In this document: positions 1 to 58,284 of the stretch, piece after piece
Numbering within the stretch: the first letter of the stretch is position 1
How the letters are laid out: every line of letters begins with the position of its first letter
Source: a virus
Reading direction: 5' to 3' (one strand)
DNA length: 64,000 nt
IMG/VR virus record: IMGVR_UViG_3300025451_000012
Coordinates: 9,671 to 73,670 of that record
Translations under genes and position numbers: made by a program
The notes under the pieces: generated by a model
Told to the model about the DNA's origin: nothing
What the model saw: only the letters and a program-made list of their open reading frames with translations
The model's database searches: none

Positions 1-142
1 AAAGTGATGCAAGGGGAACTACCCCATGCGGCAGCAAGTTCAGAGGAAATGGATGAGTTTCTAAAGTTGGTAACGCATGTTGCTATGATTAAAACGGGTG
101 GTAGTGGTTATCAAACTGCTACCATTCAATAAAGGAGTTAGT

Positions 143-430
143 ATGATTTTTGGATGGCGTAAACGGCAAATTGCCAACACGGTTGATGCAGCTATTAACG
201 AGGAACCAACTGCAATTCCAGTTATACCTAAGGTAGTTGCTCCTCGCGACCCGATGAAGGATGATGCAGTGTACACAATCGGACGTAACCCTGCCGGCTA
301 TATTCAACTGCGTATGACCGGCGATGGCTACACCGCATCTACACTGACAATGAGTACAAGTGCAGTCCGATCTCTGATCCGGCAGCTTGAAGCAGCAATT
401 CCCGAAGAGGAAGACGAATCTAATGATTGA
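143..430 (+). CDS. hypothetical early protein (start refined from track ORF 98..430; AAGGAG RBS 7 nt upstream of ATG 143)
   Basis: ORF track; strong SD aaggag before ATG at 143. Confidence 0.5.
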   Translation: MIFGWRKRQIANTVDAAINEEPTAIPVIPKVVAPRDPMKDDAVYTIGRNPAGYIQLRMTGDGYTASTLTMSTSAVRSLIRQLEAAIPEEEDESND

Positions 431-818
431 GTGTTTACTGTTAGGTGATAGTATTGCAGTTGGCGTAGCACAGTATCGCCCTGAGTGTGAAGTTCATGCT
501 AAGGTGGGAATTAATAGTCGCAACTATGTTGATAGAAATATCACAAAGGATCTTGCAGCCAAAACAGTAATTATCAGTTTGGGGTCAAATGATTCCAAAA
601 ACATGAAAACTCTTGCAGAGTTGTTTGTACTTAGAGAAGTGGTTGATGCAAAAAGAGTATATTGGATCGTCCCTGCAATAAATGCAAACGCACAAGAGGC
701 AGTGAAAATTGTTGCTGGCAAGTTTGAGGATAAGATTTTGTTCATTCCTCAACTTTCAAAAGACAAAGTTCATCCTACAACAAATGGTTACAAAGAATTA
801 GCAAACAGTACACGGTGA
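423..818 (+). CDS. SGNH/GDSL-family hydrolase (start refined to internal ATG overlapping upstream stop, ATGA-type coupling)
   Basis: GDS motif LLLGDSIAVG, block III SLGSND, DxxH-like DKVHPT; RBS GAGGAAG upstream of ATG 423. Confidence 0.55.
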   Translation: MIECLLLGDSIAVGVAQYRPECEVHAKVGINSRNYVDRNITKDLAAKTVIISLGSNDSKNMKTLAELFVLREVVDAKRVYWIVPAINANAQEAVKIVAGKFEDKILFIPQLSKDKVHPTTNGYKELANSTR

Positions 819-823
819 AGAAA

Positions 824-1288
824 ATGGCAAAATGTTATCAATTAGTCGGAGTGCCCGCAGCAGGTAAAAGTACTTGGATCAAGAACCAAGCCTGGGCTAG
901 TGATTGTACTATTGTATCTACCGACATGTGGGTTGACATGGAAGCCGAACGACTTGGACTAACCTATAACGAAGTGTTCAAAGACTATATGCCACAAGCC
1001 GTAAAGCTAATGGCTATTCAAGTTGAGAATGCTCGGGACCTGGGCCGAGATATCATATGGGACCAAACTTCTACTACAGTTAATAGCCGTAAAAAGAAGT
1101 TTAATATGTTGCGTGATTATGAGCATGTTGCTGTGGTGTTCCGCACACCCGTACGTGACGAGTTAGATGTGCGATTGAGTGGTCGCTTTGGTAAACACAT
1201 TCCGAAAAATGTTGTTGATAGTATGATTGCAGGTTGGCAAGAACCAACTAAGGATGAAGGATTTATTGAGGTACGATATGTGGATTGA
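824..1288 (+). CDS. polynucleotide 5'-hydroxyl kinase domain protein (T4 PseT kinase-domain-like P-loop NTPase)
   Basis: Walker A GVPAAGKSTW; collinear similarity to T4 Pnk kinase domain (DQTSTTVN~DTNLNP, VFRTPVRDEL~VFDVPWTEL, KHIPKNVVDSM~KAVPIDVLRSM); no HAD phosphatase domain. Confidence 0.6.
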   Translation: MAKCYQLVGVPAAGKSTWIKNQAWASDCTIVSTDMWVDMEAERLGLTYNEVFKDYMPQAVKLMAIQVENARDLGRDIIWDQTSTTVNSRKKKFNMLRDYEHVAVVFRTPVRDELDVRLSGRFGKHIPKNVVDSMIAGWQEPTKDEGFIEVRYVD

Positions 1289-1742
1289 GAATGTAGCTGC
1301 TAGTGATATCCCAACTCGCTTCCATCATGAAGCAGGTGAGAACTCTATGCTGATTAGCATTACAGATCCTGCAGGTTGGAAGCCAGAAGCAAAGCACGTG
1401 TTCAAGGAACGTCATAACTTTGAGTTCCTTGACATTGAATTGCATGACTATGCATTGGAAGAAGAAATGCGTTGCAGCCAAGAACAAGCTAACGAGTTGG
1501 TTCGATTGCTGCAACATGCAAAAGACAATCGCATGAACGTGGTTGTTCACTGTACTATGGGCATTTGCCGTAGTGGTGCAGTTTGCGAAGTCGGTGTAAT
1601 GATGGGATTTGAAGACACTGGAAGATTTCGTAGCCCTAACTTGTTAGTCAAGCATCGTATGATGAAGGCATTGGGTTGGACATATGATGAAAACGAAAAG
1701 CCAAACTTAGATGATTGGCGAACTTTTAAGAATGATTTTTAA
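1278..1742 (+). CDS. Cys-based (CX5R) protein-tyrosine/dual-specificity-type phosphatase
   Basis: classical PTP signature VVHCTMGICRSGA (VHCxxGxxRSG); start refined to ATG 1278 overlapping upstream stop. Confidence 0.65.
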   Translation: MWIENVAASDIPTRFHHEAGENSMLISITDPAGWKPEAKHVFKERHNFEFLDIELHDYALEEEMRCSQEQANELVRLLQHAKDNRMNVVVHCTMGICRSGAVCEVGVMMGFEDTGRFRSPNLLVKHRMMKALGWTYDENEKPNLDDWRTFKNDF

Positions 1743-1960
1743 TGTTTAAAGTAAAAGGTAAGACTGTTTCATTTGATGCAATGACATTGGATGAAGCAAT
1801 GCACACCGCTAAAGTAATGAACGAGTTTGTGACCATCACCGGTCCAGACTTTGAAATCGTAGGTATGTTCGGAGTTGATACTATCAAAGACGGCAAATGT
1901 CCAGATGGGGTTGCATACGACTGGAATAAGGCTAGTCGGATCGGACAGACCAAACGATGA
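1742..1960 (+). CDS. hypothetical small early protein
   Basis: ORF track; ATG overlaps upstream stop (TAATG). Confidence 0.5.
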   Translation: MFKVKGKTVSFDAMTLDEAMHTAKVMNEFVTITGPDFEIVGMFGVDTIKDGKCPDGVAYDWNKASRIGQTKR

Positions 1961-2027
1961 TTTATCTGCCCGAAAGTACTTGCTTCATTATTGTATTGAG
2001 TGTTATAATGACGCTAGAGAAATATAT

Positions 2028-2306
2028 ATGATCCATCTTAACCTCACAATTCAAAATCCATGGAGTAACACATTCAAAACTGTGTTTGTTAAAGCCGGCC
2101 AACTAACTAAAAACAAGTCTTGGGAAATTGAATGTTACCGATGTGGTGTGTTAATTAGTTTTAGCTTTGAGATGACTTTCCGTAGAGACCACGGAGGACT
2201 CTGCATAGAGATGGGGTTTTTGGGATACACAATCGGTGCACAAATTTATGACAACCGACACTGGAACAGTGGAACAAATACTTGGGTGAAACATGACAAT
2301 GACTAA
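2028..2306 (+). CDS. hypothetical protein (start refined from 1875 to internal ATG 2028 to avoid long overlap)
   Basis: ORF track frame; weak promoter-like TTGCTT..TATAAT in the 68-bp gap upstream. Confidence 0.4.
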   Translation: MIHLNLTIQNPWSNTFKTVFVKAGQLTKNKSWEIECYRCGVLISFSFEMTFRRDHGGLCIEMGFLGYTIGAQIYDNRHWNSGTNTWVKHDND

Positions 2307-2526
2307 AGAAGAAGTAATCCACATGATGTGCCTAGAGTACAGGCATGATTTTGGATTGCGAAAACAACCTACTGACCCTTCTTGGGAAGCAGGGATGACA
2401 GAGCGTGATGCCAAAATACTTTACAGTGTAATGGAATTCATCTATAATGAAATTATCAAATTAGCAGACTTACAAACCCTTAAAGGAAAACAAAATGCAA
2501 CTAAAAGACGTAAACGAAAGTCTTGA
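2293..2526 (+). CDS. hypothetical basic protein
   Basis: ORF track. Confidence 0.45.
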   Translation: MTMTKEEVIHMMCLEYRHDFGLRKQPTDPSWEAGMTERDAKILYSVMEFIYNEIIKLADLQTLKGKQNATKRRKRKS

Positions 2527-2992
2527 ACATCGTATCAATGGCGGCAGCGAATATGGCTGGAAGTGTTACGGTCCTAACGCCCGCTTTCTAGATTATGAAA
2601 GTGCTTATGCAACTGGGTCATGCGTATTTGATACGACAGATCAAGTAGTCTACGAAATTCATGTTGAAATCAAAGATTCAGAACAAAAGCCTTATCGTTG
2701 GTTGAATCCTCTGTTTAAGAATGTTATGTATGAGGAAGCATCGTACCGTACAATAGATGCAGACCAAGCATGGGATGATGTTAAGTGGATTGACTTGGAG
2801 ACAGAAGAAGACTTCCTAGAAAAAGCAAGTGCTATTTTCAAAGGTGAAGACTTTGACAAACGTGTTAGTGTGCCGATCAATTTATCCAAAGATGAATTGT
2901 TTACTATGATGCAACTTGCGCACGAGAAAGATATCACACTCAATGAGTTAGTGGTTGAAATTTTACAAGCAGTGATTGATAAACATGAATGA
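2495..2992 (+). CDS. hypothetical acidic protein
   Basis: ORF track; RBS aaagga before ATG. Confidence 0.55.
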   Translation: MQLKDVNESLEHRINGGSEYGWKCYGPNARFLDYESAYATGSCVFDTTDQVVYEIHVEIKDSEQKPYRWLNPLFKNVMYEEASYRTIDADQAWDDVKWIDLETEEDFLEKASAIFKGEDFDKRVSVPINLSKDELFTMMQLAHEKDITLNELVVEILQAVIDKHE

Positions 2993-3275
2993 TGCGGTAG
3001 CTAGTATTTTTACTTGGATCAAAGATGACTATAAAACTTACCCTGTTCGTTTTGTCGTTGAAATTATGGCTTGGGCTATTTCAATCGCGTGTTCGATCAC
3101 AATGGCGCTCACTGTACCCAATCCGCCTCTTATCTATCTTTATCCTATATGGATTTGTGGCTGCGCTATGTACGGTTGGGCTGCTTATACTCGTAAATCG
3201 TTTGGTATGATTGCAAATTATTTGTTGCTTGTCACTATTGACAGCATTGGTTTAATTAGAATGTTGGTAAATTAA
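2976..3275 (+). CDS. hypothetical membrane protein
   Basis: ORF track; 2-3 predicted TM helices (WAISIACSITMALTV, IWICGCAMYGWAAY). Confidence 0.5.
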   Translation: MINMNDAVASIFTWIKDDYKTYPVRFVVEIMAWAISIACSITMALTVPNPPLIYLYPIWICGCAMYGWAAYTRKSFGMIANYLLLVTIDSIGLIRMLVN

Positions 3276-3276
3276 T

Positions 3277-3747
3277 ATGAATGAAAATAAAACTTTTACA
3301 GTTATCGTTGAGGAAGATCCTGAGACAGGTGATCTAATTCTTCCCTTCCCCGAAGGTCTGTGTGATCAGCTGGGCTGGGAAATTGATGATACTCTCAACT
3401 GGGAACCCAATGATGATGGTTCGTTTACTCTGTCTAAGAAGGTAGAAACTCAATGGGTTCTCGTTGAATGCGTTAGTACGTTCCGCGACCGCTATATGGT
3501 CGAAGTTCCTATTGGTGTTGATGATTTCGGTAAAGATAAATCTACATGGGCATTGGATACCGTAACGATGGAAGAAGCCAAGACATTCAGTTCAGAGCAT
3601 TTAGGTGAACAAATTGTGTCGCATCGTGTTGTTACTAAGGCAGAGGCACTGACCTTGTGTGACAAAGATAATGACTACACTACTTCTTGGGATGAAGAAA
3701 CTAAGATCAAAAACTTCTTTACAACTTGGAAAGAACAAGGGCAATAA
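3277..3747 (+). CDS. hypothetical acidic protein
   Basis: ORF track; tight packing. Confidence 0.55.
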   Translation: MNENKTFTVIVEEDPETGDLILPFPEGLCDQLGWEIDDTLNWEPNDDGSFTLSKKVETQWVLVECVSTFRDRYMVEVPIGVDDFGKDKSTWALDTVTMEEAKTFSSEHLGEQIVSHRVVTKAEALTLCDKDNDYTTSWDEETKIKNFFTTWKEQGQ

Positions 3748-4071
3748 ATGGCACAAGCAATTCAAATGACCCATACTAAAACTGGTATCGTCAAAGACGG
3801 ATACATTGGTTTTAGCTATAGCTATTTCTTTCTAGGCATCTTTAGTCTAGGATGGATTGTACCGCTTTATCGTGGTAATCTCGTAATGTCATTGATTTGT
3901 CTAATCTTTCACATGTTCACATTACCACTGTGGATGCTTACTGCATTGATGTTCGGGTTGTTCTTTAACAAATTCTACACATTGCGACTTATCGAAGAAG
4001 GTTACCGATTCACTGACAGTGATGAGGAACTTGTCGCCCGAGCAAAAACAATTTTAGGAGTATCAAAATAA
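3748..4071 (+). CDS. hypothetical membrane protein
   Basis: ORF track; TM helices; ATG immediately after upstream stop. Confidence 0.55.
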   Translation: MAQAIQMTHTKTGIVKDGYIGFSYSYFFLGIFSLGWIVPLYRGNLVMSLICLIFHMFTLPLWMLTALMFGLFFNKFYTLRLIEEGYRFTDSDEELVARAKTILGVSK

Positions 4072-7076: not shown

Positions 7077-7487
7077 ATGGCTTACATGAATCAAGAACGC
7101 AAAGCAGAACGTGCCCCAGCTATCAAAGCAATTTTGAAAAAGTACAACGTCAAAGGTTCGCTTGCTGTGCGCAATCACATGACTTTGGTTTTGAACATCA
7201 AGAGTGGTTCTATTGATTTTATCGGCAACTTCAACGATACCGTTAGTGCTGATCCGTATCTCTCTGCACGAGGTTTCAATAAAGCGGAAAAGTCTCTGGA
7301 CGTGAATCCTTATCACTATCAAAATCATTTCAGCGGTGACGCTAAAGCATTCATGCAAGAAGTTTTTGCAGTTATGAATGGTGGCAATCACGACCGCAGC
7401 GACATTCAAACCGACTACTTTGACGTGGGCTGGTACGTTGACGTGAACGTTGGTCAATGGAACAAACCTTACACAGTTGGTGCATAA
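7077..7487 (+). CDS. hypothetical protein
   Basis: ORF track; conserved leader. Confidence 0.55.
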   Translation: MAYMNQERKAERAPAIKAILKKYNVKGSLAVRNHMTLVLNIKSGSIDFIGNFNDTVSADPYLSARGFNKAEKSLDVNPYHYQNHFSGDAKAFMQEVFAVMNGGNHDRSDIQTDYFDVGWYVDVNVGQWNKPYTVGA

Positions 7488-7701: not shown

Positions 7702-7953
7702 ATGACAACTAATGATGAGTACTATGCAGGTATGATTGAAGGTGTACTTGATGGTTTTGCTTTGCGAAAAACGCAAGAAATTCCAAGAACTAATGTATCT
7801 GCCGGCGCCAAAGCCCTAATGAGTGTAGTTGAAGGGACAGAAAATCCCAAAACTATCCCTGGACCTAAAATGACAGCCATAATGGGAAGTTGGGGCACAC
7901 GTAACGATTATGTATTGGTTCCGGGAACGCACCCGAAACTTGTTCGCAACTAA
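7702..7953 (+). CDS. hypothetical protein
   Basis: ORF track; RBS aaaggaaatgatATG. Confidence 0.5.
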   Translation: MTTNDEYYAGMIEGVLDGFALRKTQEIPRTNVSAGAKALMSVVEGTENPKTIPGPKMTAIMGSWGTRNDYVLVPGTHPKLVRN

Positions 7954-8061: not shown

Positions 8062-8454
8062 ATGGCTAATCAATCTTTCAAAGTCGCTGGTATCACTACA
8101 CATGGTACTTCTACAAAAGTTCGCTTCACGGATGACCTCGTTCGTCGGGTGAAACAATTCTCTAAAGGTGGTGCATCACGCATTGACTTGATGGAGTTGC
8201 CTACTTCAATGACAAAACTTGAGGCACTTGCGTATCTGCAAGCACACGCTGATTTTCAATCCCCGTCCGATCAGGCTACGATCAATGATGCGATTGAGGA
8301 CCGTTCTAAGGAAGCAAACAAAGGTATCGTCAAGGTCAAAGTGACTAAGGCAAAAGCAAAGCCTAGCATTGATGCAATCAAGGCACGTGCTAAGAAAGAA
8401 TTGACCCCCGAACAAGTGCTTGCACAAGCATTGCACAACGTGGACCCAGCATAA
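8062..8454 (+). CDS. hypothetical Lys/Ala-rich protein
   Basis: ORF track; RBS taaggaacacaATG. Confidence 0.55.
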   Translation: MANQSFKVAGITTHGTSTKVRFTDDLVRRVKQFSKGGASRIDLMELPTSMTKLEALAYLQAHADFQSPSDQATINDAIEDRSKEANKGIVKVKVTKAKAKPSIDAIKARAKKELTPEQVLAQALHNVDPA

Positions 8455-8878: not shown

Positions 8879-10594
8879 TTAGAATGTGTACCATTGCGTA
8901 CTTGATGACGCACTAAATTCTACCCTACTGTTTGACGTTAGTACAAACGCAGCGTTTGCAGCCAATGAATTAATTGTGCCACCTGCAGCAGGAAAAACGT
9001 TTACACTGTTTGCACTGGTGTTTACTATTTTGATTGAAACACCTGTAGTTGGAGTAGGCAGTACTGCACTATTAGCTCCGTTGATTGAGGCAGTAATAAC
9101 ATTCAACTGTTTGGTCAATGCAACTGCCGCTGATTGAGTTGCTCCTGTACTTGATACTGATGCAGCTACTGATTGTGACACTAGATTGGCTACTAGAGTA
9201 TCAGTAGTAACTGATCCAATCACTGAAACATTGCCACCAACGTTTAAGTTCTCACCGATACCTACGCCACCCGCAACCCTTAATGCGCCGGTTGTAGAAT
9301 TAGTTGATGTGGTCAAAGTGTCCACTTGTACATTTCCTGCTGCAACTTGTATCGCATACGGATTTGTGAGTGTGATATTGCCACCTGCGATCGGTGCGCC
9401 TGCAACATAGAATGATGCAGCTTTTGTCACCGTGACAGTATAATTTGCAGCAGCAATTGTTGGTCTAGCAATAGTATGAATATGTGCATTTGCTACATTG
9501 CCTGATGCAAGAGTTGAATTATCAGTATATGTCGCACCTGTTGCAATAAAGCCTATACCAGTTGTTCCCCATGCACTAGTTATCTTAGCACCTGAAGTTG
9601 TCACCGTTACACCCTGTACGGTACGGGTTGTAATGAGATTACCACCAGTGATGTTACCAGTAGCAACAACTTGTCCGGCAGTGGTCAAATTACCACCAAT
9701 TACGTTACCTGTTACATTGGCAACTCCTGCTGTAACTAAATTGCCTGCGTTTACATTACCCGTTACATTCGCAGTAGTGTTACTAAGAATCTTTGCTGCG
9801 ACTAGATTGCCGACTAACGTAATATCATTAGGAATCTCTACTGTGATAGTTCCTGATTGGGTGATTGGACTGTTTAATACAGTCAACGTATTACTCGCTA
9901 CATCAACACGAGTTACTGTGCCAGCCGCTTTCAGTGTAGATGAGATAGTAATTTCACCAGTGATTCCACTTAGCTCAATACCAGTACCAGCTGTAAGACG
10001 AGTCACACCTGTATTGGTAATTACAATTGTTCCGTTACCGATAATAGGACTACCGGTAACTGCGATTCCATTGCCGAACGCTTGCATTGCTACACTAGTT
10101 ACTGTACCGGCTGATGCAGTGTTTGTGATGCTAGTGATTCTACCGTATGCGTCTACGGTCATTGTGGGTGCAATATATTGACCCGGACTAAATTGTAGTC
10201 CTTGTTCTATCATAGGCAATTCAATACCAATGATACCTGCACTGATAACTGGACTATTTGAGACAGTGAGTGTGCTTGATGTTACGCCAACGCTAGTAAC
10301 ACCTGTATTTCCGTTACCCGATGCAGAGATAGTAACGTTACCGGCTGTGTTCGATACAGTAACGCCTGTTCCTGCAAGTACATTTAGTACTCCTGTATTG
10401 GTAATAGTAACTGTATTTCCGGATTTTTCAGTAAGTATGCCATTACCTGCTGTAAAATTTTGATAAGGACTAGCTGTTGAAAATAGTGTAGTGAAGTTTT
10501 CTTCTGTTTTGGTAAATGCAGAAAATAGACTATCTGCGCCTGTTGCTTGATTTTCTACCCCTACTTGTATGTGTTGTTGTCCTGAAATAGCCAT
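8879..10594 (-). CDS. tail-fibre-like / beta-helical repeat protein (Gly/Thr/Asn/Val-rich, almost no charged residues)
   Basis: 571-aa ORF; repetitive GNxxxTGNV motifs typical of phage fibre/adhesin shafts; late-promoter-like motif upstream. Confidence 0.65.
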   Translation of the reverse strand: MAISGQQHIQVGVENQATGADSLFSAFTKTEENFTTLFSTASPYQNFTAGNGILTEKSGNTVTITNTGVLNVLAGTGVTVSNTAGNVTISASGNGNTGVTSVGVTSSTLTVSNSPVISAGIIGIELPMIEQGLQFSPGQYIAPTMTVDAYGRITSITNTASAGTVTSVAMQAFGNGIAVTGSPIIGNGTIVITNTGVTRLTAGTGIELSGITGEITISSTLKAAGTVTRVDVASNTLTVLNSPITQSGTITVEIPNDITLVGNLVAAKILSNTTANVTGNVNAGNLVTAGVANVTGNVIGGNLTTAGQVVATGNITGGNLITTRTVQGVTVTTSGAKITSAWGTTGIGFIATGATYTDNSTLASGNVANAHIHTIARPTIAAANYTVTVTKAASFYVAGAPIAGGNITLTNPYAIQVAAGNVQVDTLTTSTNSTTGALRVAGGVGIGENLNVGGNVSVIGSVTTDTLVANLVSQSVAASVSSTGATQSAAVALTKQLNVITASINGANSAVLPTPTTGVSIKIVNTSANSVNVFPAAGGTINSLAANAAFVLTSNSRVEFSASSSTQWYTF

Positions 10595-24284: not shown

Positions 24285-24320
24285 ATAAAAATGAGGGCTT
24301 GTCAAGGCCCTCATTGTTTT
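24285..24320 (-). terminator. intrinsic terminator (ATGAGGGC-TTGTCAAG-GCCCTCAT) downstream of NadV
   Basis: 8-bp stem; A/T runs both sides. Confidence 0.6.
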
Positions 24321-25752
24321 ATTTACGAGCGTTTGCCCGAACTTCTTCAAAGGTGATTTCTTTTACAAGAGCACCATCACGGTAGACTTCTTCAAGAACC
24401 TCAGTCCAAACCGTACCTTTATCAGTCCATCCCATTGGCATAGTAACCGATGATTGATATTCGCCACCTGATTCCCAAAGTGTAACACGACCACGCTTGC
24501 TACGCTTGCCACTGTCAGTGACGGGGTCTTTGTACACATCGCGCCAGGTAAGTTTCCATCCTGACCCTTGATCACCGTCTTCTACCCATTCACGAATACC
24601 AACTGCACTGCACTTCATTGCCCACTGCATTGTGTCACGGTTTACTTGTTGCAGCAATGCACCACCTTGACCGAACGCCACGTTGTCTGCTGAGAACCCT
24701 GCGATTTCCATACAGAACAAAATGCTGTGGATGCTAGCGTGATTGATACCATCACCCTGAAGGATACGCACTGCTGGGTTTAGTACACGGTAGCCTTTAG
24801 CATTAGTAGTAGAACCAAAATGTTTTTCAAGAATGTACAAACACTTTACAACCACATCACTGGGGTTACCCGAGTCTGGGCGGACGACCAAAGTTGCGCC
24901 ACTGTCAAGGACGTCTTGTTTGAGTACGGTGCCCCAGAGTTCGCAGGCTTGGTAAATGTCGTAGCTGTCCGAGACTGCTGCAAAGATGCCACCTTGCTTG
25001 GCATTTTGTTTGACCATGTTGCGGTATGCGTCAACTTCATTTTCTTTTCCCCATGATGTTACTGTAGAGTGCTCCATAGCTGGGATACTAAATCCAGCGA
25101 TATCAGCATTGTAATACTCCCGAGCAACAAGTAAAGCGGATACAGTGTCCGACCCCATAAAATTAATGAGGTGGGCTGCTCCGCCGAGTCCCGCTGACTC
25201 CATAGAAGAAACACCGCGAGAGCCAAAGTCATGCAACTTAAAATCGATAAGAGTAGGGTCACCTGTTTTCTCCAATGCAGCAAGGATAATTTTTTTAGAT
25301 TCGTAGCTATTAGTTGCTACAGTAGTAGGATACCAAATTGCGCGGAGCAATGCAGTTTCTAGGAAACTTGTAAGCCAGAAGCATTTTGGATCGGTGTTTT
25401 CGATAGTAGCCAACACATTTTTTGTGGGGATGATAAGTCCCTCTGGGGCGCTCTTGATAACGACGGGGAGTCGTCCACCATGGGCTTCCAAGATATAGTC
25501 CCAACCCGCTCGATTGAACGGTTCGCCGTGCGCTGTGATAATGGCTTCTGCAACATCAATGTCTTCCTTTGTAATTGGGGTGGTGAGATACTCTTTAATA
25601 AATGCTTGCAGTCCAAAATAGACTGTATCGTTCCATTGTCCGCCGCGCGATTCAATGTAAGAGTAAACATACTCAGTACCTGCTGGATACTGGTTGAATT
25701 GACTGTATTTGTAGCTATCCGAATTGAGGATAATGTTTTTTGCGAGTTTCAT
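24319..25752 (-). CDS. nadV: nicotinamide phosphoribosyltransferase
   Basis: 477 aa; family-wide conserved segments (FGSRGVSSMESAGLGGAAHLINFMGSDT etc.). Confidence 0.9.
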   Translation of the reverse strand: MKLAKNIILNSDSYKYSQFNQYPAGTEYVYSYIESRGGQWNDTVYFGLQAFIKEYLTTPITKEDIDVAEAIITAHGEPFNRAGWDYILEAHGGRLPVVIKSAPEGLIIPTKNVLATIENTDPKCFWLTSFLETALLRAIWYPTTVATNSYESKKIILAALEKTGDPTLIDFKLHDFGSRGVSSMESAGLGGAAHLINFMGSDTVSALLVAREYYNADIAGFSIPAMEHSTVTSWGKENEVDAYRNMVKQNAKQGGIFAAVSDSYDIYQACELWGTVLKQDVLDSGATLVVRPDSGNPSDVVVKCLYILEKHFGSTTNAKGYRVLNPAVRILQGDGINHASIHSILFCMEIAGFSADNVAFGQGGALLQQVNRDTMQWAMKCSAVGIREWVEDGDQGSGWKLTWRDVYKDPVTDSGKRSKRGRVTLWESGGEYQSSVTMPMGWTDKGTVWTEVLEEVYRDGALVKEITFEEVRANARK

Positions 25753-27223: not shown

Positions 27224-28249
27224 TCAAGCTCCAACTGCCCACATGACCATGTCATAGTGGTCTTCAAAACATTCTTCACTACGCACCTCTGCGATAGGAA
27301 CCCATCGTGCTTTTTCAGCATCGTCACTGCCTTTTACTTTTGGCAACTCACCGTCGGGCAATACGATTTTGAAACAGTGTGTGATAATACGACCACGTGG
27401 TGAGCGATCCACAGCATCAAACACACGATTGTCAACAATACTACCGCGCAGTACAGGACCGGGCACTTTGATTAATGTTTCTTCACGCAATTCACGAATA
27501 GCCGCATCCAATACAGTCTTGTCAGTGTTTGCGTTAACATAACCACCGGGCAATGCCCACAAGCCACGACCTGGTTCAGCACGGCGTTTAATCATTAGTA
27601 CATGCCCTGATTGAATCACGACAGCATCCGCAGTAGAGAAAATAGGAGGGTATTTCAAGCTAGAATATTGTTTTGCGTTCTCAATCAAAAACTCACGCTC
27701 ACGGATAACTTGTTCGTATTCTTTGGACTCTTTGAATTGTTCCAAGAAGTCAAAAGTAGTAGGAGGAACAACGTTACGGATAAAATTCATATTCACATCA
27801 CGCTTGAAATACAAACTGCGAATGTCAGTAGCATCAAGTGGCTCTAGCAATTCAACTTCTTCAAAGCCCCATTGAGGGAACATGTCTAAGTAGAATGAGC
27901 TTGGGTCTTTTCTGTGACCGATGATACCAATTTTGTCACCGGGCTTAGTGTGTTTAGCAACCAATGCCTGTACACGAACTGCCCATGCTTGGTCGTTGTA
28001 AATTGTATCTGGGTTAGGTTCTACACTAACTGTTAGTGTACCACTGAAGCCATTTGTGGCATACTTAATCATTTGCCTACGTTCATCAAAGGTAAACGGA
28101 TTCTTATAAGTGCGGGGCTGATTAGCACTACCGCAGATAAAGATCAAATTGTCAGCTAGTGCAGTTGCACGACCTGCCAATAGTAAGTGAGCAGTGTGAA
28201 ATGGTTGAAAGCGTCCAATGAGGACTAGGGTATCGTACTTTTTTGACAT
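27224..28249 (-). CDS. natV: bifunctional NMN adenylyltransferase / Nudix ADP-ribose pyrophosphatase (NadM-Nudix, NatV-like)
   Basis: N-terminal GRFQPFHTAH (HxGH-type nucleotidyltransferase); C-terminal Nudix box GGYVNANTDKTVLDAAIRELREETLIKV. Confidence 0.85.
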   Translation of the reverse strand: MSKKYDTLVLIGRFQPFHTAHLLLAGRATALADNLIFICGSANQPRTYKNPFTFDERRQMIKYATNGFSGTLTVSVEPNPDTIYNDQAWAVRVQALVAKHTKPGDKIGIIGHRKDPSSFYLDMFPQWGFEEVELLEPLDATDIRSLYFKRDVNMNFIRNVVPPTTFDFLEQFKESKEYEQVIREREFLIENAKQYSSLKYPPIFSTADAVVIQSGHVLMIKRRAEPGRGLWALPGGYVNANTDKTVLDAAIRELREETLIKVPGPVLRGSIVDNRVFDAVDRSPRGRIITHCFKIVLPDGELPKVKGSDDAEKARWVPIAEVRSEECFEDHYDMVMWAVGA

Positions 28250-29062: not shown

Positions 29063-30103
29063 TTAACCCATTTCATTAGGGAAGGGCCAAGGACCATCTG
29101 CTGCGTTTGATACTGGGGCAGTCTTTGCGACGGTCACGTATTGATACCGAGGGGCGACTCCCCATTCAAAATCGTCCGTACCTTTACTAAAGCCTTCTTC
29201 GTAGTCCCTGTTGTAACGAACACCAGGGTTGTGCTCATTGAATTCTTCGTAGCCATCAGTGTAACCACGATAGAATTCACTAGAGCCAGTCTTAGGAGCA
29301 GTTACTACTGGCTTATGAATGTTGTTACTTGCGTTACTTTGCACCGGCTTAGAAAATGCAGTATCAACTTCATCACCATCATTACCGATTTCACCGATAA
29401 CTTCGTACTTGCATGTACGACCCTTAGCGTTGTTATAGTCGCTAGGGATAGAGACCACATCAGCAGGATTGATTTTCAAAATCATAACACGGCTGTCAGA
29501 ACCATTACCAAAGTGTGGCAGATATTCCTGTGAGCAGAAGTGCAAACCAGTACTACAAGTTTGATCCTTGTTGTCGTCAACTTCGTTGCGTTCCATTTCA
29601 CAGATGTAACCAACACTGTTGTTAAAGGTACCACTGTGAATGTCCATGTAATCGCTGCGAACTTTCTTGTAAGCCAAGAAGCAACCATCAGGAGTGATTG
29701 GCAAACTGTTCTTTTCCAAGAAGCCATACAACTCAGTGACAGCCCGCTTAGATGGGTTAGCCATCAAGTTTTCCATGAACGCCACGAGAGGTTCAACTGG
29801 GAAGCCATCTTGCAACATTGCAATCATTCGGCTAGTCAATGCATTGTGCATTGGTTTGCCTTTCCAGAACAATTCCTCACCCTGGACACTTACGTTACCA
29901 GCACCAAAATTCAACACAACCTTGATAGGCTCGATGATATTCTTAACCAAGTCCCAATCACTTGCCTTGATAGCATCCAACACCTTTTGATAGGTGATGT
30001 GTGATTTACTAATTGTGTGTGGCTTGTTGCCAATCACTACGGTAATGTTATTACCTTGAACGATATACGGAAAACTCATTTTAGACTCCTTTAGCCTGGT
30101 CAA
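29063..30103 (-). CDS. rIIB: rIIB protector-from-prophage-induced-early-lysis protein
   Basis: collinear similarity to T4 rIIB C-terminal half (NPSKRAVTELYGFL; DQTCSTGLHFCSQEYLPHFG; DVVSIPSDYNNAKGRTCKYEV). Confidence 0.9.
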   Translation of the reverse strand: MTRLKESKMSFPYIVQGNNITVVIGNKPHTISKSHITYQKVLDAIKASDWDLVKNIIEPIKVVLNFGAGNVSVQGEELFWKGKPMHNALTSRMIAMLQDGFPVEPLVAFMENLMANPSKRAVTELYGFLEKNSLPITPDGCFLAYKKVRSDYMDIHSGTFNNSVGYICEMERNEVDDNKDQTCSTGLHFCSQEYLPHFGNGSDSRVMILKINPADVVSIPSDYNNAKGRTCKYEVIGEIGNDGDEVDTAFSKPVQSNASNNIHKPVVTAPKTGSSEFYRGYTDGYEEFNEHNPGVRYNRDYEEGFSKGTDDFEWGVAPRYQYVTVAKTAPVSNAADGPWPFPNEMG

Positions 30104-32237
30104 TCAAATTAATATACTCTGCCAAATCAGCACCTTCGATGCTGTACTTGCTAAGACTTTTAATTAGCGGGTAACGCTTTTTAATAGTCTCAACCTCTTT
30201 TCTGTACTTATCAATCAGTGTAGTTGGGTCAACATTTGTTGACGTAGCTACCTTGTACTGACGGCACAACCATTCCAAACTCTGACGCAAACTAGTGTCA
30301 GCTTCTTTCACATCCTTGAACGTGTTGAACAACACTAGATAAGGGCTTGTTGCACTTTTCACAAGCATAGTAGCATTATACTGGAAAAGTTCTTTGTAGT
30401 CAATACTCTGTTTGACCAAACCCATCACATCAGCTTGTCCCAACAGAGCCAGTTTACCCTTAATGTGTTCGTCAAGGTTAACCCAGTTCTTTTGAGTTTT
30501 GATGTTTTCAATATCAGTCTTACGCACACCGTAAATGTCTTGAGTGTAGATACCACTCTTGCGCAGATGAACGTCCAAACTCTTAACATCCTCAACAACG
30601 CCGAGGTTCTTGTAACCACTCAAGGGCAAGTAGTAGTAAGTTTTAGTAGCATCAAAGTTAGAGGCCTTACCACCGTCATGCCATACCATCGGGGCACGTT
30701 CATTGTACCTGCGTCGGCTACCTTCTTCCAAGCGCATGATAGTAACGTTCTGGCCAATACCACTTGCACGTTCCTTCTCAAGCAAAGAACTTGCTACCAC
30801 AATCTTATCTTCCGGAGGACTAGACAATGCAGCAAAGAATGCCTTTGTGTTCACTGGCTTAGTCTTATCAACCACATCAATCACATATACCGAAGTGTTA
30901 TGATTATCACTCTTAGAATTTTTCCAGTGAAATTTAGCTCGTTCAGTAGCACCGACCTTTGTATCGTTGATAACAAAACAAACACTGCTATTTACTGAAA
31001 TTTCCCATTCATCAAAGTAAACAGTAGTACCGTTAACATTGTTGTATCCATGAACTGGCTTGATCGTAGAGCAAGCATTGTAACCACGACTCCGACTGAA
31101 AGCACGAATAGTAATATTGTACTTGGATGCCAACTCTTTCACTGGAAATTTGAATTTCTTCATAGCATTCCAACGATTGAGGTTCGGGGTATACAACTCA
31201 AACTTGGTGTCAGTGATATACTTGACAACAGCCTGATTGAACAATTTTTCCTCATGACGCTTTTCCAAATAGAAAGCACGTTCCCACAAGTTGGTAATCT
31301 TGTCAGCCTCAGTAGCAATGTGAATTGCCAATTGTGCGTTCAACAGTTCCAACTTATTTTTGATAGCGTTGATAGTTTGTGGAATGTAGCTCAAGCCCTC
31401 ACGACTTGCTTGGAAGTCAAGTTCGCCGATAGCAAACTCCATCACTAGTCCACAACTCAACAAACCTTGCAGACCACCGAGAGCCTTATCAGCACTAGGA
31501 ATGTCAGTCAACGGATACTTGATGTTACCCATGATAGCATAGCTATATTGTCCGCCATCAGTATAGTGAACACCAGGGATGATGTTTTCTTCCTTGTACG
31601 CAGGGTCTCGGAACTTGAATTCAGAGTAACCACTAACTACTGGACGCAGTTTGAAGTACTCGTAAACATAGCGGGCCTCAGTACGAAACTTGTCAAAATC
31701 GGAACGATCTTCCACAGCAAACTTAACCTCAACACCAGCTGGGTCAGTAGTTTGTTCTTCCATCATTTTAGCGATAGACGGGACACCTGCTTCATTGATA
31801 AAGGCTGTGTAAACACCCTTAACGCCATCTTTAACCGCAGTGACTGTAAAGTTGTCGGTGTAACTGAAGGGAGATTTTGAACCGAGACCCAATGCTCCGA
31901 TGAATTCGTTAGAATCAGTCTTTGTGGACTCAAAATAAGTGGTGTAGATGTTAGTGACTTGATCACCTGAAAGACCTGTACCATAGTCACGGATACTGAA
32001 CCAAGGTTCAAGACTGTTGGGCAAGTGAACGTCAAAGGGCGTGTCTTGTTTACCGGCTGCGGTATGCGAGTCAACCGCGTTGCAAGAAAGTTCACGCACG
32101 ATTGCACGAATCTTGTTTGCGTACAAACCTGATGAAAGAATGTTAAAAGCCTTCGCACTATTGCGAATGCGGAACTCACCAATCTGTCCTACGTTGGACA
32201 TGATTGCTTCGTTTTGCGGTGCTGCATTGATAATCAT
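30081..32237 (-). CDS. rIIA: rIIA protein
   Basis: 718 aa; N-terminus SAKAFNILSSGLYANKIRAIVRELSCNAVDSH matches T4 rIIA ([30 protein letters not shown]); GALGLGSKSPFSYTDNFTVT conserved. Confidence 0.9.
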   Translation of the reverse strand: MIINAAPQNEAIMSNVGQIGEFRIRNSAKAFNILSSGLYANKIRAIVRELSCNAVDSHTAAGKQDTPFDVHLPNSLEPWFSIRDYGTGLSGDQVTNIYTTYFESTKTDSNEFIGALGLGSKSPFSYTDNFTVTAVKDGVKGVYTAFINEAGVPSIAKMMEEQTTDPAGVEVKFAVEDRSDFDKFRTEARYVYEYFKLRPVVSGYSEFKFRDPAYKEENIIPGVHYTDGGQYSYAIMGNIKYPLTDIPSADKALGGLQGLLSCGLVMEFAIGELDFQASREGLSYIPQTINAIKNKLELLNAQLAIHIATEADKITNLWERAFYLEKRHEEKLFNQAVVKYITDTKFELYTPNLNRWNAMKKFKFPVKELASKYNITIRAFSRSRGYNACSTIKPVHGYNNVNGTTVYFDEWEISVNSSVCFVINDTKVGATERAKFHWKNSKSDNHNTSVYVIDVVDKTKPVNTKAFFAALSSPPEDKIVVASSLLEKERASGIGQNVTIMRLEEGSRRRYNERAPMVWHDGGKASNFDATKTYYYLPLSGYKNLGVVEDVKSLDVHLRKSGIYTQDIYGVRKTDIENIKTQKNWVNLDEHIKGKLALLGQADVMGLVKQSIDYKELFQYNATMLVKSATSPYLVLFNTFKDVKEADTSLRQSLEWLCRQYKVATSTNVDPTTLIDKYRKEVETIKKRYPLIKSLSKYSIEGADLAEYINLIDQAKGV

Positions 32238-46574: not shown

Positions 46575-46751
46575 TTAAAATAAAATTACTAAACCAACTA
46601 ACACTATCAGTGATAGTATTGAACACATTATAGCATAGGTTATTGATTTTGTCAAGCCCCATACTTCTTTTCCTGACAATGTTCTGACCCAAGATATACC
46701 AAATCCAAATACAACTGTCAATATCACAAATGCTAAAAATACTTTAATCAT
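46575..46751 (-). CDS. small membrane protein ORF (58 aa) not in track; contains the SPFH-gene promoter
   Basis: own translation MIKVFLAFVILTVVFGFGISWVRTLSGKEVWGLTKSITYAIMCSILSLIVLVGLVILF; ATGA overlap with ligase stop. Confidence 0.3.
   Translation of the reverse strand: MIKVFLAFVILTVVFGFGISWVRTLSGKEVWGLTKSITYAIMCSILSLIVLVGLVILF
46627..46655 (-). promoter_or_regulatory. early promoter (TTGACA-17-TATAAT, - strand)
   Basis: perfect consensus hexamers. Confidence 0.65.
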
Positions 46752-48109
46752 CATACTACCTGTTGTTTGTCATCACGAAACCGAACAAATCGGGGGAATC
46801 GTAGAGAATACGTTCCATCTTGATTTTGTGTAATCACGTCACACATGACCTCAGCGGTGCGACCAATAACGATAGCAGAGTCAGTCCAATAACTATCTCT
46901 ATCACCATCACTAAACCCACTACCAACATTGACAGTGATTTCCTTTCCGTCGTCCACTCCGGAGCAGACCAGTGCTCCAAGTCGACCTTCATTGCGTCCA
47001 GTACCTTCTTCAACACCTACGACCTCCAAGTCTACAGTAATAGTGGGTTTCCACTTCATCCAGTCAGTTGACCGTTTGCACAAATATGGAGCATCCATGT
47101 TCTTAATCATAATACCTTCGAACCCTGCGTTCACGTTGTCTTTAGCATAACGCTCAAGTTGATCCTTACCTGCGGCAGTGTCGAGGTCAACCATGATGTG
47201 AGGAAGTAGTTCAACATTGTCCATTGTATCAATCACAGGACGAATTGCATCAAGTAGTGCAATACGCTTAGTCAACTGAGCATTCCAATGACCTCGACGG
47301 AAGTCTTCAAGCGGGATAATGTCAAAAATATTGAGTACTGAATCGTCGGCTTGTGCGTCAGTTTTGCGGCGTGCTTGGCGCATGAGTTCTTGGAATGTAT
47401 TACCGATCACTTCACCATCAAGTACGAAACCATTAATGAGGCTGCGACCTTGATCTACGTTTGTACATGCACGAACTAGCTTAGTCCAACTGTTGGCAAT
47501 CTGGTCTTCAATGTGAGTAAAGTTTTCAAACACTTTACCATTGCGACTGAAACAGATAATCGTCACATCACCGTCACTAGGGATAACAGTGAACAATGCA
47601 CGAACACCATCCAACTTAGGCTCAAGTCGTTTCATGCCCTTCATTTCAGGACGACCTTCACTGTTAGTTGCAAGCTGGCAACCAAAGATTGGGATTTCGT
47701 ATTCTGTCTTTTTACAGATTTTGTTGATAGTAGTTGACGAGATACCTGCACGAAGGTCCCGACGCAACACTGCGGCACAGAATGTATTCCATTCTTCACT
47801 GTCAAAGCGTTCTGCCATTTCTTGAATAGCATCACGTGCAGCGTGACCAGTCAATTGGCGCTGTGATAGCTGAACCAATAGTTCATTGAAGTCACTCCAG
47901 GGATTTTCTGAATCAATTAGACCGACTGTATCAGGAACTTTCTTAACACCAAATGTTACGTAGGGATTGTAACATGCCTTAGCGAGTCCCAGAAATGCTT
48001 GCGAGTTGATGCTGCCCAGAATAGCAGCTTCCAATGCTTGCCTTACTACATCTTCTTTGTGAAGGCGACTGTCTGATTCGTTAAGTTTGTTGATCCAAGA
48101 TGCTGACAT
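46751..48109 (-). CDS. ATP-dependent DNA ligase (T4 gp30-like)
   Basis: adenylation motif I KLDGVRAL; nucleotidyltransferase + OB domain length/collinearity. Confidence 0.85.
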   Translation of the reverse strand: MSASWINKLNESDSRLHKEDVVRQALEAAILGSINSQAFLGLAKACYNPYVTFGVKKVPDTVGLIDSENPWSDFNELLVQLSQRQLTGHAARDAIQEMAERFDSEEWNTFCAAVLRRDLRAGISSTTINKICKKTEYEIPIFGCQLATNSEGRPEMKGMKRLEPKLDGVRALFTVIPSDGDVTIICFSRNGKVFENFTHIEDQIANSWTKLVRACTNVDQGRSLINGFVLDGEVIGNTFQELMRQARRKTDAQADDSVLNIFDIIPLEDFRRGHWNAQLTKRIALLDAIRPVIDTMDNVELLPHIMVDLDTAAGKDQLERYAKDNVNAGFEGIMIKNMDAPYLCKRSTDWMKWKPTITVDLEVVGVEEGTGRNEGRLGALVCSGVDDGKEITVNVGSGFSDGDRDSYWTDSAIVIGRTAEVMCDVITQNQDGTYSLRFPRFVRFRDDKQQVV

Positions 48110-54852: not shown

Positions 54853-55067
54853 AGTTGAAACTTCTTAAGGTATGATTGTGCCAAAGAAGTATTCTCTACA
54901 CTGTAGTCAGGTACTTCAGGCTCAATATCATTATCTTCAAAGCCATACAATGAAGCATATTGTTCAATCATTGCATCAATCAATGTACCAAACTGTTCTT
55001 GATCAAGGATAGAGGCAATCTCACCTAGATTAATTCTAATATTTTTGTTCATGTTATTTACTTTCAA
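54849..55067 (-). CDS. hypothetical acidic protein
   Basis: ORF track. Confidence 0.45.
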   Translation of the reverse strand: MKVNNMNKNIRINLGEIASILDQEQFGTLIDAMIEQYASLYGFEDNDIEPEVPDYSVENTSLAQSYLKKFQL

Positions 55068-56061
55068 TTAAAGGACCGTTGTAAGTACTGTTGAGCCATT
55101 TTGAGTATGTTTCCGCTTGATCTGCAATCTTGGGTAAATCATACTTGCCCGCGAACTTCATTAAATGGATGCCAACTTGTGTTGTATTTCGGGGTTGCAA
55201 AGATTCCTTGATAGTTTTATCAAACGCATCTTTCAAATCTTGGGGCTGTGCTGTCAAATCGATAAGTGTGCGATTGCGTTCATATGCATCTTTGACACGA
55301 ACCTCATTGCCCTCATGATCGGACCAGCGTTGCAACATCAGATTGTTCCACGAAAATCCCATTTTGTGACGGTCTTCAAATGCCTCTTTGATACCAACTT
55401 TGTTTTTACTACCAACTTCACGCACTCCCGGAAAAGCACTGAAAATATTATCGCTTGAATCTCCCCTAATGCACTTGCGAAAAAGTAGATACTCAGGATC
55501 CTCAAGCAACTTGGGATTTTTTTCTTTGTCTAATACGGGCTTGCCCGACTCTTTAAAATATCCGGCCAGTGTTGCAAGCTCGCCGAGCACCCCATTATAT
55601 TGTTTAACTTTATCGGTGATCAACTGGTTGTAATCTGTATCGGTGCTGATGATAAAATGTTCGTCTTCGGGATGCAGTGCGAGGAATCGGGCAATCATAT
55701 CGTCAGCTTCTGCCTGAGGATGCCTGAGGACACTTACATTAGTACGGTCTTTGAGATACGTAGTGAATTTTTCATACGTGTCCCAAAAAAGTTTGCTTTC
55801 CTCAGCCTCAGCCTCAGTAACTGATTGTGCATCAACAATGCGATTCTTTTTATACGGAGCATACATGTCCTTGCGAAACGACCTGCCCTCTAAACAGAAT
55901 ACGACATGATCAATTCCATATTTGCGAACAGCTTGATTGACTGATGCGAATGTAATGTGCAAGGCTTGTGCAACTTTTTCTTCTGCGTCAGTGCCGCGCG
56001 CGGCCACGTGACGGGCACGAAAAAAAGTGTTGGCAGTATCGATGAGGGCATATGTAGTCAT
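55054..56061 (-). CDS. rnh: RNase H / 5'-3' exonuclease (flap endonuclease, T4 rnh-like)
   Basis: FEN/pol I 5'-nuclease pattern: YALIDTANTFFRARH, VFCLEGRSFRKDMYAPYKKNR, EADDMIARFLA, IISTDTDYNQL. Confidence 0.8.
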   Translation of the reverse strand: MTTYALIDTANTFFRARHVAARGTDAEEKVAQALHITFASVNQAVRKYGIDHVVFCLEGRSFRKDMYAPYKKNRIVDAQSVTEAEAEESKLFWDTYEKFTTYLKDRTNVSVLRHPQAEADDMIARFLALHPEDEHFIISTDTDYNQLITDKVKQYNGVLGELATLAGYFKESGKPVLDKEKNPKLLEDPEYLLFRKCIRGDSSDNIFSAFPGVREVGSKNKVGIKEAFEDRHKMGFSWNNLMLQRWSDHEGNEVRVKDAYERNRTLIDLTAQPQDLKDAFDKTIKESLQPRNTTQVGIHLMKFAGKYDLPKIADQAETYSKWLNSTYNGPLIESK

Positions 56062-57795: not shown

Positions 57796-58284
57796 TCAAC
57801 TTACTTCGGTTCTACCGTCGCCTAAGTCTTTAGTATTCATTTTTCGCAAGTCTCGGGCGTCTCGGTTCTCCGGATCCGCTTGGGCCTGCTCATAGACTTC
57901 TAAAGCTACGTTGCGGCATACGCTCTGAAACCATCGGTCAATGATGTCCGATTCTTTGTCGTTCTCTTTCATCTGGTAACCAACACGACTGAGATTCAAA
58001 ATGAACTTCTCATTCCAGTCTAGTTCGAAGGAACCTGCATTGATATTGTCTGGATCGACTTCCATGCTGAGAATATTGACATAGGGTTCACCTGCTAATG
58101 TAGCTTTTTCTTTAGCAGTAAGTTCCTTCTCAACCTTTTCAACCTTCTTTTCTTTGGGCTTGCGAGGTTTCTTCACCTTTACGGGCGCAGGCTCTGCAAC
58201 AGCAACGACAATGGGTTCGACTACTGGATCAGGCTTTTTAGAGAATAGGGTTTTTAGTTTGTTTAGCATTATTGTATGTATCAT
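57796..58284 (-). CDS. hypothetical protein with Pro/Val/Lys-rich basic N-terminal region
   Basis: ORF track. Confidence 0.5.
   Translation of the reverse strand: MIHTIMLNKLKTLFSKKPDPVVEPIVVAVAEPAPVKVKKPRKPKEKKVEKVEKELTAKEKATLAGEPYVNILSMEVDPDNINAGSFELDWNEKFILNLSRVGYQMKENDKESDIIDRWFQSVCRNVALEVYEQAQADPENRDARDLRKMNTKDLGDGRTEVS

Follow-up and report, generated by a model that had tools for sequence, protein, structure and literature searches.

The first 1,960 nucleotides of a 64,000-nucleotide stretch of the IMG/VR virus record IMGVR_UViG_3300025451_000012 (positions 9,671 to 73,670 of that record; this whole stretch is hereafter the window) encode a stand-alone kinase domain of the polynucleotide kinase (Pnk) type and, from an overlapping gene, a cysteine phosphatase (PTP) with the fold of the dual-specificity phosphatases (DUSPs). 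The source is an uncultured freshwater T4-like phage. On balance, we favor the interpretation that window 1-1960 is the right-hand end of an early RNA (most likely tRNA) break-repair island, in which PTP is an accessory phosphatase. Because the same genome encodes a metallophosphoesterase (MPE) and two RNA ligases upstream, PTP would be an extra member of the repair set, and not the sole replacement for the HAD 3'-phosphatase domain that the kinase lacks. The three genes at the center of this analysis are as follows.

423-818, + strand: SGNH/GDSL-like miniature esterase, 131 aa (GDS, GSND and DxxH blocks)
824-1288, + strand: stand-alone polynucleotide-kinase-type P-loop kinase, 154 aa (5'-OH end-healing candidate)
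1278-1742, + strand: DUSP-fold cysteine phosphatase (PTP), 154 aa (HCTMGICRSGA; invariant Asp52 in the loop after strand 3)

Kinase and cysteine phosphatase

Direct reading of window 423-1742 gave three co-directional open reading frames (ORFs), and bore out the first-pass annotation of this DNA, which had described three coupled genes at 423-818, 824-1288 and 1278-1742 with these motifs. Five nucleotides separate the stop codon of the SGNH-like gene from the kinase ATG at 824, from which translation begins MAKCYQL, in agreement with the family N-terminus MPKCYQL. The kinase stop codon (1286-1288) lies within an 11-nt overlap with the phosphatase gene, whose ATG (1278) is preceded by GAGG 7 nt upstream.

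The kinase contains a GVPAAGKST P-loop (residues 9-17), STD34, WDQT and RLSGR (R117-x3-R121), and the Walker A motif is kept in 120/120 kinase homologues. AAA_33 is the sole Pfam domain detected (E 1e-15); matches in PHROGs are to 'ATPase' and 'polynucleotide kinase' families, and those in NCBIfam are weak ones to bacterial Pnkp and PSTK. Searches of PDB with single sequences told little, so that profiles had to be used. A profile built from 32 homologues and run against all PDB sequences matched PSTK (E 3e-6, the top match), Capnocytophaga Pnkp1 (8e-6), Clostridium thermocellum (Cth) Pnk (3e-5), mammalian PNKP (1e-3) and T4 Pnk (1.7e-3 over residues 1-139), with shikimate kinase (0.04) and gluconate kinase (0.19) the weakest. 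The kinase therefore does not belong to such an unrelated P-loop family, membership of which would have undone the Pnk assignment; both rank below the Pnk relatives. Comparison of the kinase fold gave values of 15.4 for CthPnk, 14.7/14.6 for T4 Pnk, 14.3 for both PSTK and Pnkp1, 14.0 for the stand-alone Mucorales RNA kinase and 13.5 for PNKP, followed by PFK-2, zeta toxin, gluconokinase, and the adenylate and shikimate kinases (12.9 down to 8.0); the fold is thus nearer to Pnk kinases than to other P-loop kinases.

Alignment to T4 Pnk (using a sequence checked against GenBank, 100% identity) indicates conservation of Lys15/Ser16, of Asp34 (T4 Asp35), and of Arg117/Arg121 (T4 Arg122/Arg126); Asp34, Arg117 and Arg121 are invariant among the kinase homologues, and the lid RxxxR block aligns with an hhalign probability of 93.7%. 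The general-base Asp is found after strand 2 in T4 (Asp35), Cth (Asp38) and MciKIN (Asp36) (PMC11571804). The protein stops where the T4 kinase domain stops (residue 154), without a DxDxT/HAD domain, and the listed kinase homologues are all 148-169 aa, with no fusion among them to serve as Rosetta-stone evidence. The profile, the fold and the T4 alignment thus agree with the first-pass annotation that 824-1288 is a genuine stand-alone kinase domain of the T4-Pnk/bacterial-Pnkp type. It is a further case of a known enzyme type, unstudied homologues of which are annotated in many large phages. We regard the end-healing reading of the kinase as well supported, and infer the activity itself from fold, motifs and ligase linkage.

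The phosphatase motif of the neighboring PTP is VVVHCTMGICRSGA; 119/120 close homologues retain HCx5R[ST], and 106/116 representatives of the family have HCx5RS. Pfam assigns PTP to DSPc (E 3e-8, just at the gathering score), with sub-threshold matches to Tc-R-P, PTP-SAK and Y_phosphatase; the PTP-SAK (PF22784) score is 23.5 bits against a threshold of 27. Among 39 diverse members of the family, DSPc was matched by 39, Tc-R-P by 35 and PTP-SAK, weakly, by 14. An exhaustive representative search yielded 462 PTP clusters at 50% identity, nearly all of them stand-alone proteins of 130-160 aa; the few longer representatives have no second Pfam domain. The AlphaFold2 model (pLDDT 87) best matches ordinary DUSPs (STYX 10.0, baculovirus PTP-2 9.7, Tk-PTP 9.7, DUSP14/28/15 about 9.4), and the RNA phosphatases PIR1 (7.2) and BVP (7.0) score well below these. 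Poxvirus VH1/H1 is the best PDB match to the family profile (6e-6), and the BFVD matches are only to generically named DUSPs of phages and giant viruses. Neither a specific affinity to the RNA 5'-tri/diphosphatase subgroup (BVP, PIR1, Mce1) nor the accompanying loss of the general acid was found in PTP. Throughout the family, the loop that follows strand 3 has an invariant Asp (Asp52); the general acid of MKP aligns a few residues later, near Asp57. The identification of 1278-1742 as a cysteine phosphatase therefore stands: PTP is a bona fide DUSP-fold enzyme with an intact active-site loop, and the fold does not give its substrate.

A close-alignment scan for PTP across 185,579 reference genomes gave one match (L224 7983-9067; NZ_JBBAKG010000090.1, a metagenome-assembled genome (MAG) of Haliscomenobacter sp.). 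This 23-kb MAG contig carries an overlapping PTP-MPE pair, the PTP being 65% identical to that of the window. It either hints at the host (Bacteroidota, Saprospiraceae) or is a phage contig that was wrongly binned with the MAG.

Neighborhood of the kinase and phosphatase genes

No RNA ligase or MPE was detected in the 64-kb window by tblastn or iterated hidden Markov models (HMMs). A look-up with the 95-aa protein encoded at the left end of the window retrieved a 27-kb metagenomic contig (L143; metagenomic loci are given as L numbers) that is identical to the window except for 2/10,430 bases and extends 9,858 bases to its left (window position 1 is L143 9859). The search for RNA ligases called for by the first-pass annotation was answered here, with two ligase genes within 10 kb upstream in the same genome. 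The genes on the left part of this contig and the remaining genes at the left end of the window are as follows.

L143 765-1307, same strand as the kinase/PTP string: MPE (phrog_547 'phosphoesterase', E 1e-45)
L143, between the MPE and the Rnl1-like ligase, same strand: 53-aa gene
L143 1467-2363, same strand: Rnl1-like ligase (phrog_562 'RNA ligase and tail fiber attachment catalyst', E 4e-49)
L143, between the two ligases, about 6 kb, same strand: small genes, including GNAT-like, Toprim, GIY-YIG and HNH
L143 8737-9756, same strand: second RNA ligase (PF09414, E 5e-34, plus an N-terminal PHA02142 OB domain, E 8e-31; phrog_968)
Window 1-132, + strand: 61-aa ORF that opens the transcription unit, 3' part only (whole ORF, L143 9805-9990)
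Window 143-430, + strand: 95-aa protein (overlaps the SGNH start by 8 nt, ATGATTGA)
L143 10682-11146, same strand: kinase
Window 1742-1960, + strand: 72-aa protein (its ATG overlaps the PTP stop: TAATG, 1740-1744)

Kinase, phosphoesterase and ATP-dependent RNA ligase thus co-occur in one neighborhood. The MPE contains the motifs SDxHFGH, LGD, GNHD and GHxH, and its family profile has aq_1665 as the sole strong PDB relative (E 9e-24). An assignment of this MPE to the lambda-Pase/CthPnkp type was rejected, its only strong PDB relative being the uncharacterized aq_1665.

After the second ligase, the contig continues with a promoter and the genes for the 61-aa protein, the 95-aa protein, the SGNH-like protein, the kinase, PTP and the 72-aa protein. 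From the 95-aa gene through the 72-aa gene, successive genes overlap or abut, so the string is longer than the three genes first described. The promoter is a 12/12 TTGACA-17-TATAAT match with an extended -10 TG (L143 9758-9786), located between the second ligase and the 61-aa gene; both it and the start of the 61-aa ORF thus lie just left of the window. The promoter and the overlapping genes are compatible with one early operon, and perfect promoters fit early transcription, as for T4 rnlA and pseT. A 6-kb part of L143 has four perfect 12/12 sigma-70 promoters (7368-7396, 7866-7894, 8146-8174 and 9758-9786, all +), grouped in 2.5 kb; each has an extended -10 TG and stands ahead of a small-gene block, as T4 early promoters do. 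The last of these is about 100 nt left of window position 1, and an 11/12 match is present at window 2420-2448.

Kinase homologues of cultured phages have similar surroundings. Of the cultured phages, Caulobacter phage Cr30 gives the kinase its strongest match by E-value; there, an Rnl1 gene (RNA_lig_T4_1 plus T4_Rnl1_C) overlaps at its end with the kinase homologue, and a second RNA ligase and an MPE lie a few kb away. Synechococcus phage BUCT-ZZ01 encodes Rnl1 (31% identity to that of Cr30; Pfam E 5e-18) directly upstream of the kinase, and in Sinorhizobium phage phiN3 an MPE of the same family, annotated 'phosphoesterase', is two genes downstream of the kinase. In all three phages the kinase is accompanied by MPE, without PTP at that site; in T4, rnlA is 1.4 kb upstream of pseT. 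The spot occupied by PTP in the window is filled in Cr30 by gp020 (L139 4462-4872; 136 aa), which overlaps the kinase-gene end, matches nothing in Pfam or PHROGs and does not resemble PTP. Megablast of window 1-4000 against cultured phages returned no match, and tblastn of PTP against them matched BUCT-ZZ01 alone, at 34% identity; cultured-phage annotation could therefore not settle PTP. The RIIA protein of the window (30081-32237, - strand) is at most 37% identical to that of any cultured phage, and the lineage is thus without a close cultured relative.

The island was further traced in three sets of metagenomic loci, anchored on close PTP homologues (80 loci), kinase homologues (55) and more distant PTP homologues (79), on which the island genes were mapped by tblastn and iterated HMMs. 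Across about 210 loci, PTP, MPE, kinase and Rnl1 recur, always co-directional and in many orders, frequently with the 72-aa gene, an RF-1/ArfB-like domain protein, the SGNH-like gene and the second ligase as additional members. Partners were counted within 4 kb, and only at loci whose two flanks each reached 4 kb or more. MPE was found at 25/25 close-PTP loci (kinase 9/25, Rnl1 6/25), at 23/33 distant-PTP loci (kinase 15/33, Rnl1 9/33) and at 13/20 kinase-anchored loci (PTP 9/20, Rnl1 8/20). MPE is the most constant neighbor of PTP, ahead of the kinase; with the kinase near it at only 9/25 and 15/33 loci, PTP often occurs apart from the kinase, which does not favor the first-pass replacement reading.

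The kinase directly adjoins PTP in 27/55 kinase loci and does so in both orders, with PTP first in L107 and kinase first in the window and in L083; L047 has PTP-kinase-MPE. Other arrangements include PTP, 72-aa gene, RF-1 gene, MPE and Rnl1 (L039, with the last two overlapping); PTP, 72-aa gene, MPE, kinase and Rnl1 (L040); Rnl1, further genes, PTP and kinase (L107); kinase, PTP, 72-aa gene and MPE (L127); PTP followed at a distance by overlapping MPE, kinase and Rnl1 genes (L105); PTP, kinase, MPE and Rnl1 (L162); and, without PTP, MPE, Rnl1 and kinase (L101). Many loci have PTP and MPE without a nearby kinase or ligase, and some have MPE, kinase and ligase without PTP. PTP is truly part of the repair-gene neighborhood, and has repeatedly been placed beside the kinase in either order. 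Two tandem PTP-family ORFs followed by MPE are present at L146 7705-8755.

A proposed repair scheme and its alternatives

RNA healing and sealing is the classic means by which phages counter anticodon nucleases and other host defenses that cut RNA, and the known systems combine one kinase clade with several unrelated 3'-phosphoesterases. In the scheme that we favor, the kinase would add a phosphate to the 5'-OH that anticodon or other metal-independent nucleases leave behind, and healing of the 2',3'-cyclic or 3'-phosphate end would fall to enzymes without a HAD domain. The MPE, being the partner that is conserved, may open and/or remove the 2',3'-cyclic phosphate; its GNHD motif retains the His that CthPnkp requires for cyclic phosphodiesterase activity. 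Enzymes of the MPE class can combine cyclic diesterase with monoesterase activity, the former of which depends on the His that follows GN (PMC2190708). PTP would be a second, accessory phosphomonoesterase that most plausibly takes a 3'- or 2'-phosphate off RNA ends via a cysteinyl-phosphate intermediate, gene linkage being the one line of evidence that points to RNA; alternatively, it may remove another 3'-end phosphate mark. A retained general acid would suit a phosphomonoester of an alcohol (ribose 2'/3'-OH, Ser/Thr/Tyr) and a polyphosphate less. Rnl1 and/or the second ligase with its OB domain would then seal the break. Phage ATP-dependent RNA ligases act with polynucleotide kinases and with phosphoesterases of the 2H, cRec, HAD, calcineurin-like and HD types (PMC7824862), a list that includes no PTP.

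Several findings weigh against this scheme. T4 Arg38 (Cth Arg41), three residues after the general-base Asp, contacts the 3'-phosphate of the acceptor nucleotide and is essential in T4 Pnk. The equivalent position is Val37 in the window kinase and Ile in the Cr30, BUCT-ZZ01 and phiN3 homologues, and Val or Ile takes the place of Arg throughout the stand-alone kinase clade; this is a departure in the acceptor site, and acceptor recognition must therefore differ from that of T4 Pnk. The PTP fold is more like protein and lipid DUSPs than known RNA phosphatases, and the MPE falls in the uncharacterized aq_1665/phrog_547 subfamily. If the MPE performs both 3' reactions, as CthPnkp does, PTP would not be needed for healing. 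PTP also often occurs without a kinase or ligase within 4-8 kb (e.g., L001), and the PTP loci all come from one broad related phage group, such that shared descent in a hyperplastic region accounts for part of the linkage. The linkage evidence is accordingly stronger for the kinase, which has support from independent lineages, than for PTP.

The set of genes has partial precedents. The kinase shares with T4 Pnkp (PseT), which acts with RnlA against PrrC, the P-loop Lys/Ser, the general-base Asp, the RxxxR lid and the kinase fold. The early-gene site near an Rnl1-family ligase is also alike, as is the presumed logic of 5' phosphorylation and 3' dephosphorylation followed by ligation. It differs in being a separate 154-aa protein without DxDxT/HAD and without the conserved Arg38, and in having beside it separate MPE and cysteine phosphatase genes plus a second RNA ligase with an N-terminal OB domain. 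The bacterial Pnkp systems (Clostridium thermocellum Pnkp/Hen1; Capnocytophaga Pnkp1-Rnl-Hen1) likewise combine kinase, metallophosphoesterase and ATP-dependent ligase, a triad present in L105 as three overlapping genes. However, the parts are separate genes here, not one polypeptide, the ligase is of the Rnl1 type, the MPE is of the aq_1665/phrog_547 subfamily and not lambda-Pase-like, no Hen1 was seen, and there is an extra DUSP-type phosphatase. Stand-alone Pnk-type kinases have been characterized in Mucorales fungi (MciKIN, RazKIN and LcoKIN) (PMC11571804), although these belong to a eukaryotic tRNA-splicing context and prefer GTP. For PTP, the cysteine phosphatase fold with HCx5R is shared with BVP, with PIR1/DUSP11 and with the PF22784 domain; the first two are earlier cases in which this fold acts on RNA ends (5' tri/diphosphates), and the last is one in which it was assigned to RNA repair computationally. 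PTP differs from them in keeping an invariant Asp in the general-acid region, in its sub-threshold PF22784 score, and in being stand-alone and not multidomain.

The island would thus represent a fully disassembled repair set, with kinase, MPE and ligases as separate proteins, that is widespread in an abundant uncultured freshwater T4-like lineage. Its new element is the presence of a conserved DUSP-type phosphatase and a miniature SGNH-like protein; to our knowledge, no characterized repair pathway uses a DUSP-type cysteine phosphatase or a mini-esterase, and we know of no cysteine phosphatase that has been shown to heal RNA 3' ends. It is possible, although we hold this only tentatively, that the DUSP-fold protein founds a family of cysteine phosphatases for RNA 3' ends that is very abundant in freshwater T4-like phages. 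Such an enzyme might be a 3'/2'-phosphomonoesterase that completes healing after the MPE opens the cyclic phosphate or, in a more radical version, might erase tRNA 3'-end phosphorylation installed by host defenses (e.g., CCA pyrophosphorylation of the toxSAS/CapRel type). PTP would then be the first cysteine phosphatase among 3'-end healers and a fourth non-orthologous solution after HAD, MPE/HD and 2H; action on RNA ends would amount to a new catalytic solution to end healing, and to small, possibly useful enzymes for RNA end manipulation.

A serious but rather unlikely competitor is that PTP is unrelated to RNA ends and acts on proteins (pTyr/pSer/pThr), small molecules or lipids, in host takeover or against kinase-based defenses, its place in the same plastic early-gene region being incidental. 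Its best structural and sequence matches are indeed generic DUSPs (STYX, DUSP14/15/28, poxvirus VH1), it has an invariant Asp where DUSPs have the general acid, and the evidence for a role on RNA is all by association, within one phage group. PTP is also far commoner than the kinase (429 versus 55 pattern-confirmed stretches) and often has no kinase or ligase nearby. Against this, PTP stays among MPE, kinase and Rnl1 despite extensive shuffling of gene order (including adjacency to the kinase both ways), its strand is always identical to theirs, and Pfam files DSP-PTPase domains in predicted RNA-repair 'Swiss Army Knife' proteins (PF22784, a weak match here). Should PTP not act on RNA ends, its linkage points to a second counter-defense layer beside RNA repair.

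We consider it unlikely, and more so than the preceding alternative, that kinase and PTP make up a split Pnkp in which PTP alone, a non-orthologous protein, replaces the HAD 3'-phosphatase, as the first-pass annotation proposed. Part of that proposal stands: the kinase lacks HAD and PTP is coupled to it, by the 11-nt overlap with GAGG before the PTP start; the two genes are adjacent in both orders in many relatives; the pair is here away from the MPE-Rnl1 genes, behind the second ligase; and the catalytic Cys and Arg of PTP are conserved. The replacement itself does not stand in that form, since this genome (L143 765-1307) and nearly all relatives, including 25/25 well-flanked close loci, have an MPE in tight linkage with the Rnl1 ligase and the kinase. 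In Cr30, phiN3 and BUCT-ZZ01, the partner of kinase and ligase is MPE, not PTP, and kinase loci with MPE and without PTP occur among L101-L106, L116-117 and L137. Anticodon nucleases usually leave 2',3'-cyclic phosphates, which cysteine phosphatases, as monoesterases, are not known to open. A simple replacement is thus too simple a picture, which the identification of MPE as the conserved phosphoesterase partner corrects.

Finally, it is very improbable that the kinase is not a polynucleotide kinase and has a small-molecule, protein-linked or tRNA-linked target (PSTK-like, zeta-toxin-like or in an NAD pathway), a view to which the top PDB match to PSTK, the missing equivalent of T4 Arg38/Cth Arg41, the 'zeta toxin' annotation of one cultured-phage homologue and the NAD salvage genes in the window lend some weight, and against which stand the conserved catalytic Asp and RxxxR lid and a gene location that directly follows Rnl1 in two distant phages and corresponds to rnlA-pseT in T4.

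The SGNH-like protein and other genes

The SGNH-like protein has the motifs GDS, GSND and DKVH, and its matches to Lipase_GDSL_2 (E 9e-5, 23.5 bits versus a cut-off of 32.9) and Lipase_GDSL (E 5e-4, 20.8 versus 23.6) are sub-threshold in Pfam. At 131 aa, it is short against a typical SGNH domain of about 180-200 aa. Residues G8-D9-S10, G29, G54-S55-N56-D57 and D114/H117 (blocks I, II, III and V) are invariant in 26 homologues. The homologues number 666, nearly all of those listed being 131 aa, and carry the JGI name 'lysophospholipase L1-like esterase'. The family profile matches PDB weakly (E 0.03-0.3), and almost all of these matches, the top five included, are SGNH/GDSL-type proteins; the SGNH assignment is thus made at the level of motifs. 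The gene is directly upstream of PTP, without the kinase between them, in L020-022, L027, L055 and L172-173, and the esterase is a facultative member of the island. The first-pass remark that this fold sometimes acts on 2',3'-cyclic or acyl esters gained no footing as regards the former, as nothing here links SGNH hydrolases to cyclic phosphates. SGNH enzymes are acyl esterases; as speculation, the protein might deacylate a damaged or charged tRNA 3' end, which would fit its RF-1/ArfB-like and GNAT-like neighbors.

An RF-1/PCRF-domain protein (ArfB-like peptidyl-tRNA hydrolase) of 150-163 aa recurs between PTP and MPE-Rnl1 (L039 7130-7621, L001 8575-9030 and many other loci), which suggests a coupling between ribosome rescue and tRNA repair; neither in the window nor in L143 was a homologue detected. 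At the island edge, a GNAT-like protein (Pfam MCD C-terminal domain, E 7e-7) and a 173-183-aa Toprim protein recur together (L143 4340-4828 and 5265-5786; L107 6550-7578). The 72-aa protein has no Pfam or PHROG family match, and its gene is beside or near PTP in most relatives' loci, usually following it; the 95-aa protein also has no Pfam or PHROG match, and its gene is seldom kept beside other island genes in relatives.

Elsewhere, the window encodes a UvdE UV endonuclease (58238-59272, - strand), an ATP-dependent DNA ligase (46751-48109, - strand) and a 5'-3' exonuclease/RNase H (55054-56061, - strand). No tRNA genes were found in the 64 kb by ARAGORN. An NAD+ salvage pair consists of a nicotinamide phosphoribosyltransferase (24319-25752, - strand; phrog_448, E 1e-152) and a NadM-type adenylyltransferase fused to Nudix (27224-28249, - strand); the same pair lies about 5 kb from the Rnl1-kinase-MPE genes in BUCT-ZZ01.

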